Shown: one piece after another, positions 2,390-60,937 of the stretch
Position numbering within the stretch: position 1 is the stretch's first letter
Layout of the letters: each line of letters begins with the position of its first letter
Assembly: GCA_050248855.1 (NCBI GenBank)
Contig: JBFWRP010000005.1
Span: 8,389 to 72,388, forward strand
DNA from: Planctomycetota bacterium
GTDB taxonomy: Bacteria > Planctomycetota > PLA2 > JAEUHO01
Direction: 5' to 3'
Length of the DNA: 64,000 nucleotides
Notes under the pieces: generated by a model
Seen by the model: the letters and a program-made list of their open reading frames with translations, nothing else
What the model was told of the DNA's origin: nothing
Databases searched by the model: none
Translations under genes and position numbers: made by a program

Positions 2390-3568
2390 TCACGAACCGG
2401 ACAGCTCGGGGTCTTTCTGGATGGCGTCCGTGATCTTCTTGAGAGCGGCTTCCCGACGCGACTCGTTCGCTTTCGGGTTGTAGCCGAAATCCTTGCCCAG
2501 ATGGGCCTTGACGATGGCGATGCCGGAGGTCCGCGCCTCCAGCGACACATCGTAGAGCAGGTCCAGGGCCGCGGAAACCGCGCGTTTGGGGCCCTTGGAC
2601 AAGGCCTCTTCCACGGCAGCGCGCGTGGCGGCGTCCAGGCTCGGGTCCTTGAGGCGGGCGACGAGGGCCCGCGTGGCCTTGCGGTCCCCACCCGCGTGCG
2701 CCTCCATCTCGCCGGCGAGCGCCGGGTCCCGTCCCGCATCGGGCGACAGCTCGAGACGGATGCCCTTCTCCTCGAGCCACGCGGGCGCGAGGCGCCCCGT
2801 GATCACGACTTCACTCACGCGCAGGCGTGCTTCGGCGGAGTAGAAGCCGGCAACGAGGTTTCCAAGCTTGGGTCCCTTGGGCTTGCCTTGCAGCTCGAGG
2901 CCGTCGGGCCCCTCCATCTCGAAGTGGCCCTTGACCCAGCGGGCCACGAGCGGCACGACTTCGCCCGCCTTGTGCTCGGCATTGGGCGGCCGACGGCTGA
3001 TGTAGCGGAAGCCGACGAAATCGTCCGGCGAGTCGCCTTCGCGCCACTGGTCGCCGAACTGGATGATGCTGTGTTGCCCGCCCGTCTGACCGGGATCCCG
3101 CTTGTGGAAGTAGGACTCGACCAGGGTGTAGATGACGTAGTCGTGTGCGCCGTCCGCGGGGGCGAACCACGCTCCGACATCGCTCCAGGCTTCCAGGCGC
3201 AGCTTGGCCGCCATCGTCACGTCGCCCGTCCACGTGGCCTTGTGGCGGGCGCCCTTCTTGGCGGGGATGTCGAGGCTCCCGTCGAACCAGCCCAGCTCCT
3301 CGTCGAGCTTCTCGCCGTACATGCGAAACGGCGCTCCGATCTCCCAGTCCCCCAGCTGCGCCTGGTCGCGGAAGTCGTAGCGGATCGTCACCACGCCCTT
3401 CTTGTCGATGCTGACGCGTCCGGCGAAGTGCTGGTCGAGGGTGCCCTCGGCGCGCGCACCGCGAGCCGCCAGCGCACACATCGCGACCGCCAGAAGGGGC
3501 AGTCCGAGGGCTGCCAGGGCGAGCCTGGCCAGGAGGGGGCCGCGAAAGGCGGAACGAACGGGGGGCAC
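2390..3568 (-). CDS. Secreted hypothetical protein. Start uncertain; the ORF is open to 3712
   Basis: Balanced K/E-rich composition. Internal signal peptide RSAFRGPLLARLALAALGLPLLAVAMCALAARGARA-EG suggests a GTG start near 3568. The C-terminus has helical repeat character. No family assignment could be made from sequence alone. Confidence 0.55.
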   Translation of the reverse strand: MPPVRSAFRGPLLARLALAALGLPLLAVAMCALAARGARAEGTLDQHFAGRVSIDKKGVVTIRYDFRDQAQLGDWEIGAPFRMYGEKLDEELGWFDGSLDIPAKKGARHKATWTGDVTMAAKLRLEAWSDVGAWFAPADGAHDYVIYTLVESYFHKRDPGQTGGQHSIIQFGDQWREGDSPDDFVGFRYISRRPPNAEHKAGEVVPLVARWVKGHFEMEGPDGLELQGKPKGPKLGNLVAGFYSAEARLRVSEVVITGRLAPAWLEEKGIRLELSPDAGRDPALAGEMEAHAGGDRKATRALVARLKDPSLDAATRAAVEEALSKGPKRAVSAALDLLYDVSLEARTSGIAIVKAHLGKDFGYNPKANESRREAALKKITDAIQKDPELSGS

Positions 3569-3676
3569 GGCCGGGAGGTAGCCTCGTCCACGCAGGGCCG
3601 GCTGACCCGCCACGGCGTTGCGTGTGGCAACCTTCAACCCTCGAGGTCGGCGCAGGTCGTGGGTGCGAGAGGCCCG

Positions 3677-4828
3677 ATGGTCGTCGTTCACGAGCGTGCT
3701 CCGAAGCCCCACGGGTCAGGCCCTGATCGGCCGACCGCCGGGACGGGTGCGCCCCGGGTCCTCCTCGTCAGGCTCTCCGCCGTGGGGGACGTCCTGCACG
3801 CCCTCCCGGTTCTGTCCGCCCTCCGGGCCCACTGGCCGGCGGCGCATCTGACGTGGGCGGTGGAGGATCGGGCGGCCTCGCTCCTCCTCGGTCGCAGCGA
3901 CCTGGACCGGGTCATCGTGTTCCCCCGCCGGGCCTTGGCCGCCGCCGCTCGCCGCTCCCCGGGTGCGGGCTGGCGCGCTTTGAGGGAGTTCCTCGGTGAG
4001 CTGCGGGGCCGGCGCGGCTTCGATGCCGCGCTCGATCTCCAGGGGAACCTCAAGAGCGGTCTGGTGACCCGGGCCAGCGGGGCGCCGCTTCGGGTGGGTC
4101 CGGGCCGGCGCGAGGGCCGGGAGCTCAACCACCTGTTCCTGACCCGCCGGGTGCCCGTTCCCGCGGGCGCCCGCCACCGCGTGGAGCGCAACCTCGCGCT
4201 GGCCTCGGCACTGGCGGGCCGGCGGCTGGCCTGGCGGGACCCCGGGTTCGAGCGATCGCCGGCCGCCGCGGCGGCGGCCGACGCGCTCCTGGCGGCCGCG
4301 GGCCGGGCCCCCACGGGCGGCTACGTGCTGGTGCACCCGGGGACGAGCGGGTTCGGGCAGTTCAAGCGCTGGCCGATCGAGCGCTTCGGCGCGTTCGTGC
4401 GGCGCCTCGTGGCCGATGGCCACGATGTCGTGGCCACCGCCGGCCCCGGCGAGGAAGGCCTCGTGCGCGAGGTCCTTGCCGCGAGCGGAACGGGCGCGGC
4501 CCTGCTCGTCCCGCCCGACCTGACGACGCTGGCCGAGCTCCAGTCCCGTGCGCGTCTCGTGGTGGCGCCGGACACCGGTCCGCTGCACCTGGCCGCGCTC
4601 ACGGGGGTTCCCGTGCTGGGCCTGTTCGGCCCGAAAGACCCCGACGTGTACGGCCCCTACGGACGACGCGCCGACGGCACGGTCGGCACGTTGGAGGTCA
4701 TCACGCGCGACGACGTCGCCTGCCGCCCCTGCACGCTCCGTCGCTGCGACCTGCCGCTCTGCATGACGACGTTGGATCCCGACGACGTGCTCGCGCGCGC
4801 GCGGAAGCTGTTGGCGCAGGGTGCCTGA
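3677..4828 (+). CDS. Glycosyltransferase family 9 (ADP-heptose:LPS heptosyltransferase-like)
   Basis: ATG at 3677, in frame. N-terminal RVLLVRLSAVGDVLHALPV motif. C-terminal GT9 signature PDTGPLHLAALTGVPVLGLFGP. About 383 aa. Confidence 0.8.
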   Translation: MVVVHERAPKPHGSGPDRPTAGTGAPRVLLVRLSAVGDVLHALPVLSALRAHWPAAHLTWAVEDRAASLLLGRSDLDRVIVFPRRALAAAARRSPGAGWRALREFLGELRGRRGFDAALDLQGNLKSGLVTRASGAPLRVGPGRREGRELNHLFLTRRVPVPAGARHRVERNLALASALAGRRLAWRDPGFERSPAAAAAADALLAAAGRAPTGGYVLVHPGTSGFGQFKRWPIERFGAFVRRLVADGHDVVATAGPGEEGLVREVLAASGTGAALLVPPDLTTLAELQSRARLVVAPDTGPLHLAALTGVPVLGLFGPKDPDVYGPYGRRADGTVGTLEVITRDDVACRPCTLRRCDLPLCMTTLDPDDVLARARKLLAQGA

Positions 4829-51851: not shown

Positions 51852-53972
51852 ATGGCCACTTCGCCCCGGCGATCGAGGGGACGCGACGACGAGCGCCGGC
51901 CCCGCCGGCCCCGCGACGGCGACACGCCGCCTGCGGCCAAGCCCGTGGTCCCGCCGGTGGTCCCGCCTGCAGCGAAGCCCGTGGTCCCGCCTGCAGCGAA
52001 GCCCGTGGTCCCGCCTGTAGCGAAGCCCGTCGTACCGTCCGCGGCAAAGCCGGTGGTCCCGCCCGCGGCCGCCACCCCCGTGGCCAAGCCGGTCGCCAAG
52101 CCTGCACCGCAGGCGCCGGCTCGACCCAGCTCACCGCCCTCCGCGGCCAAGGCCTCCTCCTCGTCGCGCGGCCCCCGGGCTCGCGAAACGGAGGTGGGCG
52201 GCCGCGGCCGCTCGCAGCGTCGCGGCGGCGGCATGTCGATCGGCTTGGCCTCGGCCCTGGTGGCCGCCGGCATCACCTTCCTCGTCCTGCTCGTGCAGCT
52301 GCTGATGTCGGGCCGCAAGGACGCCGAGGGCTCGCCCACGCGTGACGCCTTCGGCAGCGCCGCGGCAGCCGCCCTCGCGGGCGGCGACGACGCCGCGTGG
52401 ACCGGGGGCGCGCGCGCCGTGGCCTACGATGTGAAGTGGATCGAACGCCAGATCAGCAGCTTGTTCGGTGAACGCGGCGAACGTTGGTTCGACGACGAGA
52501 AGGCGCGCATCAACCCGGACCCGAAAGAGCTCGAGTCCATGGCCATGGACGAGATCGAGGCGATCCAGAAGCGCAAGGCCAAGTGGGACGAGACGGTCGA
52601 GAGACTGGCGGGGGCCAGCGTGGGCGCAGGCGACGACGACTCGCAGCGCATGAGGCGCCTCCTCAACAGGAACTTCCACCGCCTGTACTCGAAGGACGGC
52701 GTCTACCGCGTCATCGCGGCCCACGTGCTCAAGAACCCGGGCGCGGGCGCGCAGATCGTGGTCAGCCAGCCCGACAACGCCACGATTGCCCCCGACTGGT
52801 CCACGTACAGCACGAGCGCATCCAAGGGCGGCTCCGTCTCGGGCCAAGCCTCCATCGGGAGCGACTCCTGGCCCGTCACGATCTACCTGGCGGAGCTTCC
52901 CGGCAGCACCACCACGAGTCGCCTCATGGCCTCGGCAGCCGTCTACGAAGCCGGCTCGGCCGGCGGCGGCGGCGGAGCGGGACTGGGGCTGATCCTGTTG
53001 GTCTTGGGGCCCCTGCTTGCGGGCTTTGCCACCTTCGCGGTCGCCAACGGCTTCGGCGCCAAGATCAAGGCGCTGGCGCGCGAGATCGACCGCTTGGGCA
53101 GCACGGGCGACCCGACGCGATCGCTCCGCGCAGACGGTGCGGAAGCGTCCCTCGTGGCCCGCTCCGTCGAACGCATGGTGAGCACGCTCGAGTTCCGCTC
53201 CAAGCACGATGGCGCGGACCTGGACGAAGTGGCCCAGCGGGAGCGGGCCGTCGCCGAGGAGATCCACAAGGGTCTCGTCTCCAAGCACCCGCCGCGCCTG
53301 GACGGCTACGAGGTGGAGACGCTGTTCAAGCCCGGCTTCGAGATCGGCGGCGACCACTTCGAGTACTTCCGCATCGACGACACGCACCTGGGCCTGATCC
53401 TGCTCGACACGAACGTGCGTGGCCTGCAGGCCGCCTTGGTCATGGCATCCACGCGCGCGTACGTGCGCACGGCGGCGCCCGGCGTGCTCTCGCCAGCCCA
53501 GGTGCTGCGCGAGGTCAACCGTCACCTCGCCGGCGAGCTGCCGCCCGGCCGGCACGTGACGGCGCTCTACGCCGTGCTCGACATGAACGCGGGCACCGCC
53601 ACGCTGGCCAGCGCCGGGCACCTGCCGCTGCTCGTCTACCGCCACGCCGCGGGCAAGCTGTCCATGGTCAACCCCGAGGGGTTGGCCCTGGGCATGGACA
53701 CGGGCCCCGTGTTCGACGACGCGCTGCAGGAGGGCGAGATCCCGCTCGGAGTCGGCGACCGCATCGTCATGTACACGGACGGCGCGCTGAAGATCCAGAA
53801 CGCCGACGGCGAGGAGTTCGGCGAGCAGCGCTTCTACCAATCCGTGTCGCGCGAAGCGCCCAAGAACAGCCAGGCGTTCGTCAACTTCGTCGGCGGCGGC
53901 ATCGACGCGTTCCACGTGGGCGCCCAGCAGAACGACGACATCACGATCAGCACGATCAAGCGGCTGCGCTGA
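51852..53972 (+). CDS. PP2C/SpoIIE-family Ser/Thr phosphatase with N-terminal Pro-rich (AAKPVVPP)n repeat, TM segment and sensor-like middle region
   Basis: ATG at 51852 after AAGGGAGGA. Six PVVPPAAK-type repeats. TM GLASALVAAGITFLVLLVQLL. C-terminal PP2C motifs GGDHFEYF, LDTNVRGLQAAL, YTDGALK, NDDITI. Confidence 0.8.
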   Translation: MATSPRRSRGRDDERRPRRPRDGDTPPAAKPVVPPVVPPAAKPVVPPAAKPVVPPVAKPVVPSAAKPVVPPAAATPVAKPVAKPAPQAPARPSSPPSAAKASSSSRGPRARETEVGGRGRSQRRGGGMSIGLASALVAAGITFLVLLVQLLMSGRKDAEGSPTRDAFGSAAAAALAGGDDAAWTGGARAVAYDVKWIERQISSLFGERGERWFDDEKARINPDPKELESMAMDEIEAIQKRKAKWDETVERLAGASVGAGDDDSQRMRRLLNRNFHRLYSKDGVYRVIAAHVLKNPGAGAQIVVSQPDNATIAPDWSTYSTSASKGGSVSGQASIGSDSWPVTIYLAELPGSTTTSRLMASAAVYEAGSAGGGGGAGLGLILLVLGPLLAGFATFAVANGFGAKIKALAREIDRLGSTGDPTRSLRADGAEASLVARSVERMVSTLEFRSKHDGADLDEVAQRERAVAEEIHKGLVSKHPPRLDGYEVETLFKPGFEIGGDHFEYFRIDDTHLGLILLDTNVRGLQAALVMASTRAYVRTAAPGVLSPAQVLREVNRHLAGELPPGRHVTALYAVLDMNAGTATLASAGHLPLLVYRHAAGKLSMVNPEGLALGMDTGPVFDDALQEGEIPLGVGDRIVMYTDGALKIQNADGEEFGEQRFYQSVSREAPKNSQAFVNFVGGGIDAFHVGAQQNDDITISTIKRLR
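51931..52072. repeat. Tandem 24-nt coding repeat (gcagcgaagcccgtggtcccgcct, about 6 units)
   Basis: Direct reading of the sequence. Encodes AAKPVVPP units. Confidence 0.85.
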
Positions 53973-53976
53973 CCTC

Positions 53977-54300
53977 GTGGGCTCTCGCGAGCAACCCGCC
54001 GGCGACCTGGCCGCCTTCCAGGCGTCCATCGAGGCCACCTACGGGGAGCGCGACCGGGCCCGCGGCCTGGCTCCGACCTACATGTGGTTCATCGAGGAGG
54101 TCGGCGAGCTGGGCCGGGCGCTGCGCAAGGGGGACGCCGAGAACCTCCGTGAGGAGGTCGGCGACGTGCTGGCCTGGCTCACGAGCCTGGCCTCCATGGC
54201 GGGCATCTCCCTGGAGGAGGCCGCCAGCCGCTACCGGGACGGCTGCCCGCGCTGCGGCCAGTGCCCGTGTGCATGTCGCCGAGGACCTGCTCGCAGCTGA
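53977..54300 (+). CDS. MazG-like nucleotide pyrophosphohydrolase domain protein
   Basis: GTG start. EEVGELGRALRKGD...EEVGDVLAWL paired EExxE/D motifs. Cys-rich tail CPRCGQCPCAC. 107 aa. Confidence 0.65.
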   Translation: MGSREQPAGDLAAFQASIEATYGERDRARGLAPTYMWFIEEVGELGRALRKGDAENLREEVGDVLAWLTSLASMAGISLEEAASRYRDGCPRCGQCPCACRRGPARS

Positions 54301-54530
54301 GCGGTCCAAAGGACTTTGGACCCGACTAGGCGTCGAACGCCGGGCGACCGCTACCGCATCGATCGTGCAACCCTTTGTGGGCAAGTGACTTGCGAGAATC
54401 CACGGATTTTTGTGCCAAGCGATTGGCCATACTTGGTCACACAAGGTAAGTTCCCGGTGTCGATCCAAAGGACGCGGCATCATCCCCCCCCTGGATGCCA
54501 AAGACCTCGGGTCGGCGAACAACGGGTGAC
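54301..54530 (+). ncRNA. Candidate small RNA or structured leader (low-GC non-coding stretch ending at an intrinsic terminator)
   Basis: About 50% GC island in a 70% GC genome. No credible ORF. Perfect 9-bp hairpin ggtccaaag-gac-ctttggacc at 54303-54323. tccaaaggac occurs again at 54465. Ends in a canonical terminator. No family could be assigned. Confidence 0.35.
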
Positions 54531-54570
54531 GGCCCCCCGGCGAAAGCCGGGGGGCCGGTTTTCGTTTTGG
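54531..54570 (+). terminator. Rho-independent terminator
   Basis: GGCCCCCCGGC-GAAA-GCCGGGGGGCC (11-bp perfect stem, GNRA loop) followed by GGTTTTCGTTTTGG. Confidence 0.8.
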
Positions 54571-54829
54571 GCCACTCCCCCGGCCCCGAACGAGCGCCGT
54601 TTCGGCGCCGCAGGCGCTCCGCGACCACCCTGCGCCCGGGGCCGTGCGTGCTAGATTCGGCCGACCTGCTGGAGGGCGGGGCCTCGAAGGAGCGACGCAC
54701 GCGACCGCTGCGCCCAAGGCCGGCGGTCCGTGGACCGATCCCGAGAGCATCCGCAAGGCCCGTGGAGGGCCTCCAGCAGCCGGTCAGGGGTGGGGCCCGC
54801 GCTCCCTCCGCCGTACGGGAGGGTCACGC

Positions 54830-57148
54830 ATGCGGACGCGAACCTGGGCCTGGCTGGCCATGAGCTTCCTCCTGGCCACGGCGTGCCGGTCAACCCCGCT
54901 GGACACGATCTGGCCGGGCTGCCCCACCTGCACGCCGGACTGCCCGCAGCCCATGGTCTGCCCCCCGACGGCCGTTTCGCCCCAGGTGGACCGTGGCCCC
55001 GACCGGGTGCCGACGCAGGTGGTGATCGACGAGTCCATCTCGCCCGCCGTCGACTGCAACCCGATCATGACGCAGCACACGCTCGTGGCGACGGTGCTGG
55101 ACCAGTTCGGCCAGCCCATGCCCGGCCAGCGCGTCGAGTGGATCCTGGGTCGCTTCGGGGACGCCGTCGGCGACATCATCGCCGTCGACGACCAGTACGG
55201 GTCGGGCACCATCGCCCCGATCGCCAATGCGCGCGTCACCAACTCCGGCAACAAGTTCGACAACACGTACGTGGCCAGCGTGACGAACTACGGCCCCGAG
55301 CTGATCGACGCCGGCAACAACTTCCCCTACACGAACAGCGACGGCTCGCGACTGCCCGACTTCACCGTGGGTGCGGGGCAGTCGTGGTGCACGATCACGT
55401 CCGGGCGCGAAGGCGTTACGGACATCATCGTCTACGTCCCGGCCATCCGCGACGGCACCAAGCACAAGATCTGGGCCAAGAAGATCTGGGCCGACTTCGC
55501 CGTGGAGTTCCCGGCCGACGCCGTCAACCTGCTGCCCGAGGACACGCACCGCTTCCCGGTCCGCGTGCACCGCAGCGATGGCACGGGCATCCCCGGCCAG
55601 ACGATCGAGGCCGAGATCCTCGACGGGCCGGCCGCCGTCTTCCAAGGCGCCGGCGGCACGACCACGCGCGTCACGTCCAACGCCGACGGCATTGCCGAGC
55701 TCGTCGTGCGCAACACGGCGGGCGCACCGGGCGTCAACCGCATCAAGATCACGGCGGTAGGCGGCTTCTACGGCGAGTCCTGCCCCCGCTCGCAGATCGT
55801 CGAGAAGCGCTGGCAGCGTGTCGCCCTCGAGGTGGCCTGCACGATGCCGGCGACGGCTCCGCTCGGTCGCACCTTCGAGAAGACGATCACCGTCACCAAC
55901 ACGGGGGACGCGCCCGCCGAGAACGTGATCCTCGAGGACACCCCCGGCGGCGCCCTGGCCTTCGCGGGTGGCGTCTCGTTCCCCATGGATCTCGGCACGA
56001 TTCCCGCGGGCGAGACCGTCACGCGCACGATCACGATGGTCGGCAACGCGGCCGGCACGTTCACCAACGACGTGACCGCTCGCGGCGGCACGGCGAGCGC
56101 CCAGAGCGGCTGCGCGGTCGAGATCGTGCAGGGCCAGCTGGAGATCACGAAGGTCTGCGACCCGGCCCGCACGCAGGCTGGCAGCAGCGTCAGCTTCGTC
56201 GTGACCGTCTCCAACACGGGCCGCGGCCCGCTCGAGAACGTCGTCGTGACCGACCGCTACCCGGCCGGCATCACGCCCGCCAGCCAGGACCGCACCACGC
56301 TCGGCACGCTGCTGCCCGGCGAGAGCCAGGAGGTCGTGTTCGCCGGCGTGGCGAACGAGCCGGGCACCTACACGAACACCGCCGTCGCCACGGCCGACGG
56401 CGTGCCCGAGGCCACGGCGACGTGCACGCTCGAGGTGGTGCAGTGCCAGCTCGAGATGCAGCTGATCGGACCCGAGACGATCTACTTCGGCGAGCCCGGC
56501 AACTTCACGCTCGAGGTGAAGAACGTCGGCGATGGCGATGCCTCGGGGTGCACCGTGCGCATCACCTACGGCGGCTGCCTGGGCGGCGGCTTCGAGGACT
56601 TCGAGATCGGCCCGCTGGCTCCGGGTGAAGTCTGGCGCAAGGACTGGAGCCGCACGGCGCAGACCGTCGGCCCCTGCTCGATCCGCGCGGACTCCAGCTG
56701 CGGCACGAGCTGCACGAAGTACGCCGAGGGGCAGCTCAGCGTCCACGGCCTGACGGCGCTCCAGGTCGAGATGATCGACAAGGCGCTCGATGGCAGCGAG
56801 GAGGGCGTCTTCCGCGTAGGCGAGACGTTCCTCTACCGCTCCCGCATCGAGAACGACGCCGGCACCGAAGCGACGCCCGAGATGTTCGCGGACTGGATGC
56901 TCCCGCCCGAGCTGGAGTTCATCTCCGGCCGCAGCCTCGACGGCCGCGTGGACGTCACGGGTACGGGCCGCTCCGCCAAGAGCGGCCGCTTCGTCCTGCC
57001 CGTCGGCGGCGCCCTCGACTTCGAGATCACCGTCCGCGCCGTCGCGGCGCCGGCCAGCACGCTCACGAAGACCACCATGAACATCCGCCGCGCCTCGGAC
57101 GAGGCCGACCTCGCCGACGAGACCGAGAGCACCACGATCTGGCGATAG
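54830..57148 (+). CDS. Large surface lipoprotein with DUF11-like conserved repeat domains
   Basis: ATG at 54830 after GGGAGGG. Lipobox LLATAC. Cys/Pro-rich CPTCTPDCPQPMVCPP. Repeated ...VTVTNTGDAPAENV.../...VVTVSNTGRGPLENVVV.../...LEVKNVGDGDA... modules typical of DUF11. Confidence 0.75.
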   Translation: MRTRTWAWLAMSFLLATACRSTPLDTIWPGCPTCTPDCPQPMVCPPTAVSPQVDRGPDRVPTQVVIDESISPAVDCNPIMTQHTLVATVLDQFGQPMPGQRVEWILGRFGDAVGDIIAVDDQYGSGTIAPIANARVTNSGNKFDNTYVASVTNYGPELIDAGNNFPYTNSDGSRLPDFTVGAGQSWCTITSGREGVTDIIVYVPAIRDGTKHKIWAKKIWADFAVEFPADAVNLLPEDTHRFPVRVHRSDGTGIPGQTIEAEILDGPAAVFQGAGGTTTRVTSNADGIAELVVRNTAGAPGVNRIKITAVGGFYGESCPRSQIVEKRWQRVALEVACTMPATAPLGRTFEKTITVTNTGDAPAENVILEDTPGGALAFAGGVSFPMDLGTIPAGETVTRTITMVGNAAGTFTNDVTARGGTASAQSGCAVEIVQGQLEITKVCDPARTQAGSSVSFVVTVSNTGRGPLENVVVTDRYPAGITPASQDRTTLGTLLPGESQEVVFAGVANEPGTYTNTAVATADGVPEATATCTLEVVQCQLEMQLIGPETIYFGEPGNFTLEVKNVGDGDASGCTVRITYGGCLGGGFEDFEIGPLAPGEVWRKDWSRTAQTVGPCSIRADSSCGTSCTKYAEGQLSVHGLTALQVEMIDKALDGSEEGVFRVGETFLYRSRIENDAGTEATPEMFADWMLPPELEFISGRSLDGRVDVTGTGRSAKSGRFVLPVGGALDFEITVRAVAAPASTLTKTTMNIRRASDEADLADETESTTIWR

Positions 57149-60804: not shown

Positions 60805-60937
60805 GCCCCGGCTCGCCCAAGGCGCCGCAAGCCGCAGCCGATCCAAGACCACGGGGTACATTCGTACCCCCCTGTCATGCCCGACGCACGGGACGGACGT
60901 CCTGCGCGGCCCAGGCAGGCCCCTGGGAGGACCGACC

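Follow-up and report, generated by a model that had tools for sequence, protein, structure and literature searches.

A conserved structured non-coding element between mazG-like and DUF11/CLIPPER genes of uncultured Planctomycetota, most likely a new small RNA gene family

Between a mazG-like gene and the gene for a DUF11/CLIPPER-domain lipoprotein of an uncultured planctomycete lies a stretch of low G+C content that ends in an intrinsic terminator, and the question it raises is whether it holds a gene of its own or belongs to one of its neighbors. A sequence-only reading of the window (i.e., the whole 64-kb stretch of DNA that was analyzed, from a high-GC (~71%) MAG of the Planctomycetota) had left two possibilities, an independent small RNA (sRNA) of 120-250 nt or a terminator-based attenuator for the downstream gene. 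According to the analysis reported here, the stretch probably carries an independent sRNA gene with a promoter of its own, the transcript of which would act in trans by pairing of a C-rich loop with G-rich sites.

Locus and conservation of the element

The mazG-like gene (53977-54300, forward strand; 107 aa), which encodes a nucleotide pyrophosphohydrolase (Pfam MazG, E = 1.3e-11), served as the upstream synteny anchor. It is the last gene of a conserved PgpA-SpoIIE/PP2C-MazG run, the gene order of which is identical in all relatives. The SpoIIE/PP2C phosphatase gene of the same strand has its stop at 53972, and the GTG start of the mazG-like gene follows 4 nt later at 53977. This close spacing, which in the relatives is 0-12 nt or gives way to an overlap, suggests a translationally coupled operon. 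In the N-terminal part of the SpoIIE/PP2C reading frame (~51870-52130, forward strand), ahead of the phosphatase domain, the translation shows several tandem copies of a proline-rich unit, (P)PAAKPVVP; at which codon this gene truly starts is uncertain. The downstream synteny anchor, taken from gene calls and Pfam (DUF11, E = 5e-27), is the DUF11/CLIPPER-domain lipoprotein gene (54830-57148, forward strand; 772 aa).

From the mazG-like stop (54300) to the DUF11/CLIPPER ATG (54830) the gap measures 529 nt, and it holds only short and spurious ORFs, in agreement with the earlier statement that no credible ORF was present. The drop in G+C content noted earlier was found as well, with 0.51 at 54350-54449 and 0.57 at 54400-54499 vs. 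0.64-0.81 in the flanks. No tRNA or tmRNA genes were found. The whole 278-nt island folded modestly below shuffled sequences on either strand (z about -2.6 and -2.9), and a case made from the window sequence alone would be weak.

Relatives were gathered via aligned MazG homologs, and their genomic loci were fetched on the basis of mazG synteny. The full-length element was present between the mazG-like and DUF11/CLIPPER genes in 17 distinct relatives (MazG-like protein 63-84% identical), and divergent forms of it in three more (L065, L217 and L218). Regarding its extent, positions 54362-54574 were recognizable at the same place in every member with a DUF11/CLIPPER protein at least 56% identical (nhmmer E 1e-24 to 1e-57), and the remainder of the spacer was poorly conserved. 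This conservation across divergent syntenic genomes, for which the sequence-only reading had proposed to search, is the real signal in the island; all sequences of the family share one syntenic context, and their relatedness inflates the apparent conservation. In an alignment of 18 sequences the block begins at its 5' end with an inverted repeat (CGTAAGTC...GACTTACG) and an AT-rich stretch, continues with TTGCCATACT, eight variable bases, CAAGGTAnnnT and ~20 variable bases, and is completed by GGCAUC, a CCCCCCU loop, GAUGCC, a linker that is variable up to its AAcGGGUGAC end, a hairpin rich in G-C and a T-tract.

A covariance model (R1), which was built from the sRNA alignment, detected exactly one copy in the 64-kb window (100.8 bits) and yielded 58-113 bits for the core relatives (n = 16) and 27-40 bits for the divergent L065, L217 and L218. 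Second copies were found neither in the window nor in the flanks of the loci, and the element was not seen away from mazG in the loci examined. A metagenome scan with CCATACTNNNNNNCNCAAGGTAA gave, among the matches listed, chance matches only, none of them with the downstream RNA features.

In three further loci (L010, L014 and L033) the SpoIIE-MazG-DUF11/CLIPPER synteny is kept and the sRNA is absent; the sRNA unit, which elsewhere separates mazG from the DUF11/CLIPPER promoter, would either have been inserted there or be ancestral and retained. In the sRNA-less L010, one stretch (4330-4420) has TTGCAT...TACAGT, which resembles a promoter, and a remnant, GGGTGTATCGACGCCCCCCGGGGGGC, that lacks a T-tract and is flanked by the inverted repeats GTGCCCGGCAC and GTGCCGGGCAC; this stretch has the appearance of an sRNA gene copy that has decayed or been truncated. 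As a separate observation, the 3' half of the sRNA terminator of L217 (GGCAGCGGAGGCCAAGGAGTCGT, 3520-3543) is repeated ~108 nt downstream (3628-3650).

Two features of the island are not part of this conservation. The perfect stem-loop described earlier right after the upstream stop is present (54303-54322, forward strand), with 9-nt arms (54303-54311 and 54314-54322, 100% complementary) that are 2 nt apart; in the predicted fold it has 8 bp and a loop of 4 nt. The contigs L001-L003, which are near-identical, are the only ones that have it; it is absent or unalignable from L004 on, and was rejected as a part of the sRNA element because it is lineage-specific. The 10-mer TCCAAAGGAC, which had been pointed out as a repeat, does occur twice (54305 and 54464), but 20 of 100 shuffles gave at least as many matches and the second copy is not kept in relatives, so that it was rejected as a functional repeat. 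Neither the hairpin nor the 10-mer has an evident part in the element.

Regarding coding potential, the ORFs that overlap the island mechanically (31-112 aa) might be taken for a small protein-coding gene, but no frame is preserved, since the distances from one invariant block to the next take all three values (0, 1 and 2) mod 3 in the various loci, and the longest ORFs lie on different strands and in different frames from one locus to another; a small ORF was rejected accordingly. The reading of the island as a chance AT-rich spacer with an ordinary terminator is excluded by the strong syntenic conservation and by the covariation described below. The probability that either of these two explanations holds is practically negligible. 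Judged by the comparison of the loci, the element is real, conserved, structured and non-coding, and most likely represents a new sRNA gene family that is restricted to a clade of uncultured Planctomycetota.

Predicted promoter and the upstream gene

The most conserved bases of the element are located upstream of the RNA, in a -35/-10-like block where the G+C content is lowest. The predicted -35 hexamer, TGGCCA (54424-54429, forward strand; family consensus TTGCCA in the 18-sequence alignment A4), is separated by 17 nt from the predicted -10 hexamer, TAAGTT (54447-54452, forward strand; TAATGT, TACTGT or TATACT in the family). The -35 hexamer overlaps an invariant block, CATACT (54428-54433), and the -10 hexamer is preceded by an invariant CAAGG (54442-54446). 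The motif at the predicted -35 element was found once in the window (0 expected). Within the -10 hexamer T1, A2 and T6 are invariant among the 18 sequences and positions 3-5 are free. The divergent homologs read TATACT (L065), TATGCT (L218) and TACTGT (L217); in L065 and L218 the TAnnnT is kept while the flanking bases change. As an RNA the block has invariant pairs only and shows no covariation. Because of the -35/-10 pattern, the kept hexamer, the absence of RNA covariation and the lowest G+C content, 54424-54452 is read as the putative promoter of the sRNA, with a start near 54457. Of the low-GC stretch, most would then be promoter and upstream sequence instead of RNA. A reading of the entire ~210-nt conserved block as one structured RNA was also considered and found no support, as its promoter-like part contributes invariant pairs without covariation.

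The two boxes have the spacing and the conservation pattern of a promoter, and a simple sigma-70 scan with an E. coli-type consensus found none at the sRNA, because the -10 hexamer matches TATAAT at only three of six positions. A plain sigma-70 promoter would leave the invariant CATACT and CAAGG unexplained; the block may also be sigma-B-like (GTTG, N15, AGGTAA) or overlap with a regulator site.

Further upstream lies the conserved inverted repeat (54366-54394, forward strand; columns 10-40 of A4). With 66% of the cells paired vs. 32-42% for slid partners, it shows some compensatory pairs, and its inner stem covaries in several lineages. The repeat (CGTAAGT...ACTTACG) starts right after the mazG stop in most relatives, its center is ~75 nt upstream of the predicted sRNA start, and the sequence of its arms is kept even in L217, a genome of 54% GC. 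It may form a hairpin at the 3' end of the mazG mRNA, or it may be a palindrome to which a protein or regulator binds.

The first of these options touches on a different explanation of the whole block, namely that it belongs solely to the mRNA of the SpoIIE-mazG operon, as its 3'UTR, and has no promoter of its own. The structured end would then serve to stabilize the mRNA or to terminate it, and a small RNA, if any, would be a processing product of the type II 3'UTR-derived kind. Such an origin would agree with the absence of any other terminator between the mazG stop and 54530, with the start of the conserved block immediately after the mazG stop in most relatives, with the moderately supported hairpin found there (54366-54394), and with the fact that the element was never seen away from mazG in the loci examined. 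It is nevertheless considered unlikely, since the most conserved bases have the exact anatomy of a -35/-10 pair with 17-nt spacing, an invariant T, A and final T and a free middle; this block does not covary as RNA, its TAnnnT is kept in divergent homologs despite changed flanks, and the G+C content is lowest exactly there. The 3'UTR and the preferred reading as an independent sRNA gene are also compatible with each other, as the terminator may be common to the sRNA and the operon. That the sRNA terminator probably ends the upstream SpoIIE-mazG transcript as well is concluded from the lack of another terminator in the scan.

RNA structure, terminator and the downstream gene

The predicted sRNA transcript (~54457-54569, forward strand), which takes up the 3' two-fifths of the island, comprises ~110 nt, somewhat less than the 120-250 nt given earlier for an independent sRNA; its 5' end is placed at 54457 +/- 3 and its 3' end within the U-tract. 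The independent sRNA as such finds support in the promoter-like boxes and in the covarying structure and terminator of ~20 genomes. The distance from the -10 hexamer to the end of the U-tract was 113-120 nt in 17 of the 18 sequences measured and 156 nt in L213. In that locus the linker is lengthened by an insertion of ~40 nt (2950-2990), located between the 5' domain and the GGG motif. Its promoter, C-loop hairpin and terminator are all intact, which is consistent with a modular RNA.

The predicted transcript on its own folded below shuffled sequences (z = -4.2, 0/200 shuffles), with identical MFE and centroid structures and an unpaired C-rich loop. RNAalifold, applied to 16 sequences, gave three helices only, which are termed P1, P2 and the terminator. 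For the explicit structure 93.7% of the cells were paired, vs. 34-51% with slid partners, changes on both sides were found in ten pairs, and 0/500 column shuffles matched the observed values. The element thus combines a conserved secondary structure, which stands out in the shuffle and slide controls, with the absence of a kept reading frame, as is to be expected of an sRNA.

The 5' domain (54461-54514, forward strand) consists of the outer helix P1, formed by CGAUCC (54461-54466) and GGGUCG (54509-54514), and of the helix P2 enclosed by it. P1 is paired in 81% of the cells, shows changes on both sides in three of its six pairs, and is present in the MFE and centroid folds. P2 (54476-54499, forward strand), formed by GGCAUC (54476-54481) and GAUGCC (54494-54499), is 97% paired and nearly invariant, with changes that are G-U-compatible. 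It is capped by a loop of 12 nt, AUCCCCCCCCUG (54482-54493), with a run of eight cytosines at 54484-54491. The motif CCCCCCU.G of this loop is invariant in 16 sequences, in which the C-run varies from C6 to C9, and the core-clade loop CCCCCCU(G/C)G is the most conserved part of the RNA. L217, the most divergent homolog, has lost the C-run, and the C-loop is therefore not universal in the wider family; the loop of L065 is only C/U-rich.

A single-stranded linker (54515-54529, forward strand) with an invariant A..GGG (GGG at 54524-54526; invariant columns in alignment A6) joins the 5' domain to the terminator. Its consensus AAcGGGUGAC lies directly 5' of the terminator, and the GGG is kept in the divergent L065, L217 and L218. 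Candidate roles of the GGG linker are a second pairing site, a protein-binding site or an extension of the terminator. Alternatives that were considered by eye, i.e., replacement of P1 by a 5' hairpin (GUGUC/GACGC), a pseudoknot of the loop with the GGGUGA of the linker, and pairing of AACGGG with the U-tract, were set aside, since the changes were inconsistent across sequences.

The intrinsic terminator (54530-54569, forward strand) is formed by 12 G-C pairs (54530-54541 with 54546-54557), a GAAA loop and the U-tract GUUUUCGUUUUG. The G-C stem, loop and T-tract reported by the sequence-only reading were thereby confirmed, with one base pair more than the 11 it had counted. In the DNA the hairpin is followed by GTTTTCGTTTT, and the site was the only terminator-like one in a terminator scan of 53800-55000; no T-run follows the hairpin on the minus strand. 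The stem is paired in 98.4% of the cells and shows compensatory changes on both sides in seven of 12 pairs (e.g., GGCCCCUUGG/CCAAGGGGCC in L007 and GACCCUCCGG/CCGGAGGGUC in L211 and L214). The loop is variable across relatives and not C-rich (GAAA in the window). A G+C-rich stem with compensatory changes, a short loop and a U-tract on the transcribed strand, as typical of intrinsic terminators, are thus all present.

The element is always located directly upstream of the DUF11/CLIPPER gene and on the same strand, a position that would suit an attenuator or riboregulatory leader controlling this gene by read-through. The 260 nt from the end of the T-tract to the ATG, a distance given earlier as 259 nt, contain, however, a predicted promoter of the DUF11/CLIPPER gene, an extended -10 box TGCTAGATT (54649-54657, forward strand) ~80 nt downstream of the terminator. 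This box is kept in all loci, 75-95 nt past the terminator, with the variants TGATACAGT or TGCTACATT; it is also present in L065 and in the sRNA-less L010, L014 and L033, in the first two of the latter within GAAGTCCTGCTAGATTCCG. Because the box is found downstream of the terminator, and also in loci without the sRNA, the DUF11/CLIPPER gene would have its own promoter beyond the sRNA terminator, and the predicted -10 box does not leave the terminator between the promoter and the start codon of the gene, where an attenuator is to be expected. The element is in this respect independent of the downstream gene.

As observed in the individual loci, the surrounding promoter box GAAGTCCTGCTAGATTCCGGCCGAT (extended -10, TGnTAGATT) occupies positions 54640-54668 of the window, 4463-4487 of L010, 1696-1720 of L014, 1291-1315 of L065 and 4357-4370 of L033.

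The other properties of the region do not favor an attenuator either. The sequence between terminator and ATG is poorly conserved, no conserved alternative pairing that could serve as an anti-terminator was found, RNAalifold gave P1, P2 and the terminator as the only helices, no riboswitch or other cis-regulatory leader family of Rfam matched beyond noise, and the loop shows no specific complementarity to the 5'UTR of the DUF11/CLIPPER gene. Control by read-through, the second possibility of the sequence-only reading, is accordingly regarded as highly improbable. The 5'UTR of the DUF11/CLIPPER gene measures 165-290 nt and is poorly conserved except for a GGAG-type RBS; this long 5'UTR behind a conserved promoter may itself be regulatory. 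It was also considered as a target of the sRNA and rejected, as the duplex energies with the loop were no better than those of dinucleotide shuffles (15 loci, p 0.11-1.0); the duplex sites are not positionally conserved.

Comparison with known small RNAs and proposed function

A comparison of the whole window with Rfam 15 gave no family at the gathering score. At E <= 10, positions 54200-54900 and a 141-nt transcript yielded only partial matches to the terminator hairpin (e.g., BSnc120 and CC2171). Known Rfam families were rejected on the grounds that these permissive matches are terminator-hairpin noise, and the Rfam scan proposed earlier as a check thus identified the island with no family, whether as a 3'UTR or otherwise.

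The closest likeness is to 6C, an sRNA of Actinobacteria (Rfam RF01066) that is named B11 in Mycobacterium. C-rich loops of 6C pair with G-rich RBSs, e.g., the AGGGGGG of panD, without Hfq or ProQ, and the hosts are high-GC bacteria in which G-runs are depleted genome-wide, as reported for mycobacteria (PMC6486639). Shared with 6C are the short sRNA in a high-GC bacterium, a hairpin loop with a conserved run of at least six cytosines (here the invariant CCCCCCU) and a depletion of G6/C6 runs in the host, which is ~6-fold in the window. Whereas 6C has two hairpins with loops of at least six cytosines, the planctomycete RNA has one such loop, that of P2, its second hairpin being the terminator; it further differs in the long P1/P2 hairpin, the GGG linker, the canonical U-tract terminator and the phylum. 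The 6C model RF01066 matched neither at the gathering score in the whole window nor at E <= 10 in 54200-54900 and the transcript. The planctomycete sRNA is therefore an analogue of 6C and not a member of its family, and the likeness is probably convergent.

Exposed C- or C/U-rich loops that target G-rich or Shine-Dalgarno sites are also known from RoxS/RsaE (Firmicutes), CcsR (Rhodobacter) and RepG (Helicobacter), all of which are independent genes with intrinsic terminators. The planctomycete element differs from these in phylum and in the number and placement of C-motifs, and none of their Rfam families appeared in the scans. A comparable position is taken by type I 3'UTR-overlapping sRNAs of the DapZ or MicL kind, which are located behind a protein gene on the same strand and have their own promoter and the terminator of the upstream gene. 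The element resembles them in lying directly behind a same-strand gene, in its predicted own promoter and in a terminator that is probably common with the upstream mRNA, but its promoter is intergenic, ~125 nt past the stop in the window, and not inside the upstream coding sequence.

Under the proposed mechanism, the sigma-70-like promoter (TGGCCA, 17 nt, TAAGTT; 54424-54452) would drive a transcript of ~110 nt (~54457-54569), which would form one long irregular hairpin of P1 and P2 that presents the invariant C-rich apical loop AUCCCCCCCCUG as the proposed seed, followed by the short single-stranded linker with its invariant GGG and by the strong intrinsic terminator. The exposed C-run would pair in trans with G-rich, Shine-Dalgarno-like sequences of mRNAs encoded elsewhere, and the pairing would lower the translation or stability of the target mRNA, as for the C-rich loops of 6C. 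By analogy, trans-acting repression of mRNAs with G-rich start regions is the most likely function.

In the window, runs of six G or C are ~6-fold depleted on both strands (19 G6 and 25 C6 vs. ~129 and ~140 expected), and runs of five G or C are ~4-fold rarer than the base composition predicts. The only candidate G-rich site seen in the window, CAGGGGGG, precedes the minus-strand ATG at 60861 by 4 nt (60855-60875) and is a perfect complement to the loop sequence CCCCCCUG; the ORF behind it is RNase HII-like, its product having the motif GIDEAGYGPL. As a target of the sRNA this site would be a lead, not evidence.

A real and independent sRNA might also function otherwise than by pairing of its C-loop with G-rich sites, either by binding or sequestering a protein through the C-rich loop or the GGG linker, or with the linker as seed. 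The GGG linker survives in all divergent homologs, whereas L217 has lost the C-run and L065 has a weakened one, and the unusually conserved promoter region hints at dedicated regulation. Set against this are the C6U loop of the core clade, which is the most conserved part of the RNA and predicted to be unpaired, base pairing as the only experimentally dissected precedent for such loops, and the absence of GGA-type or other known protein-sponge repeats, so that a function of this kind is considered rather improbable and pairing through the C-loop is preferred.

Control of the predicted sRNA gene would be a dedicated one, to judge from the invariant CATACT and CAAGG beyond the hexamers and from the conserved palindrome ~75 nt upstream. 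Because of this dedicated promoter control and the palindrome, the sRNA may belong to a stress-signalling module of the adjacent SpoIIE-type PP2C phosphatase and MazG genes.

For the PVC superphylum, a survey of 2022 listed only eight Rfam sRNA families (PMC9029176). In a literature search no planctomycete sRNA family was found described. It is tentatively suggested, as a claim more doubtful than that of the independent sRNA gene itself, that the element represents the first structurally supported base-pairing sRNA family in Planctomycetota, a convergent counterpart of 6C with an invariant poly-C loop for rare G-runs in RBSs and under dedicated control. As an object it is of an ordinary kind, a small regulatory RNA, and the advance is incremental, not conceptual. 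Riboregulation in planctomycetes is essentially uncharted, and the element is a concrete candidate with a defined structure, a predicted promoter, a terminator and a seed that can be tested. Should the poly-C loop function as it does in 6C, the pairing of C-runs with G-runs would be a recurrent mode of sRNA targeting in high-GC bacteria that arose independently in unrelated phyla, and it would provide a simple rule of target prediction for uncultured lineages.
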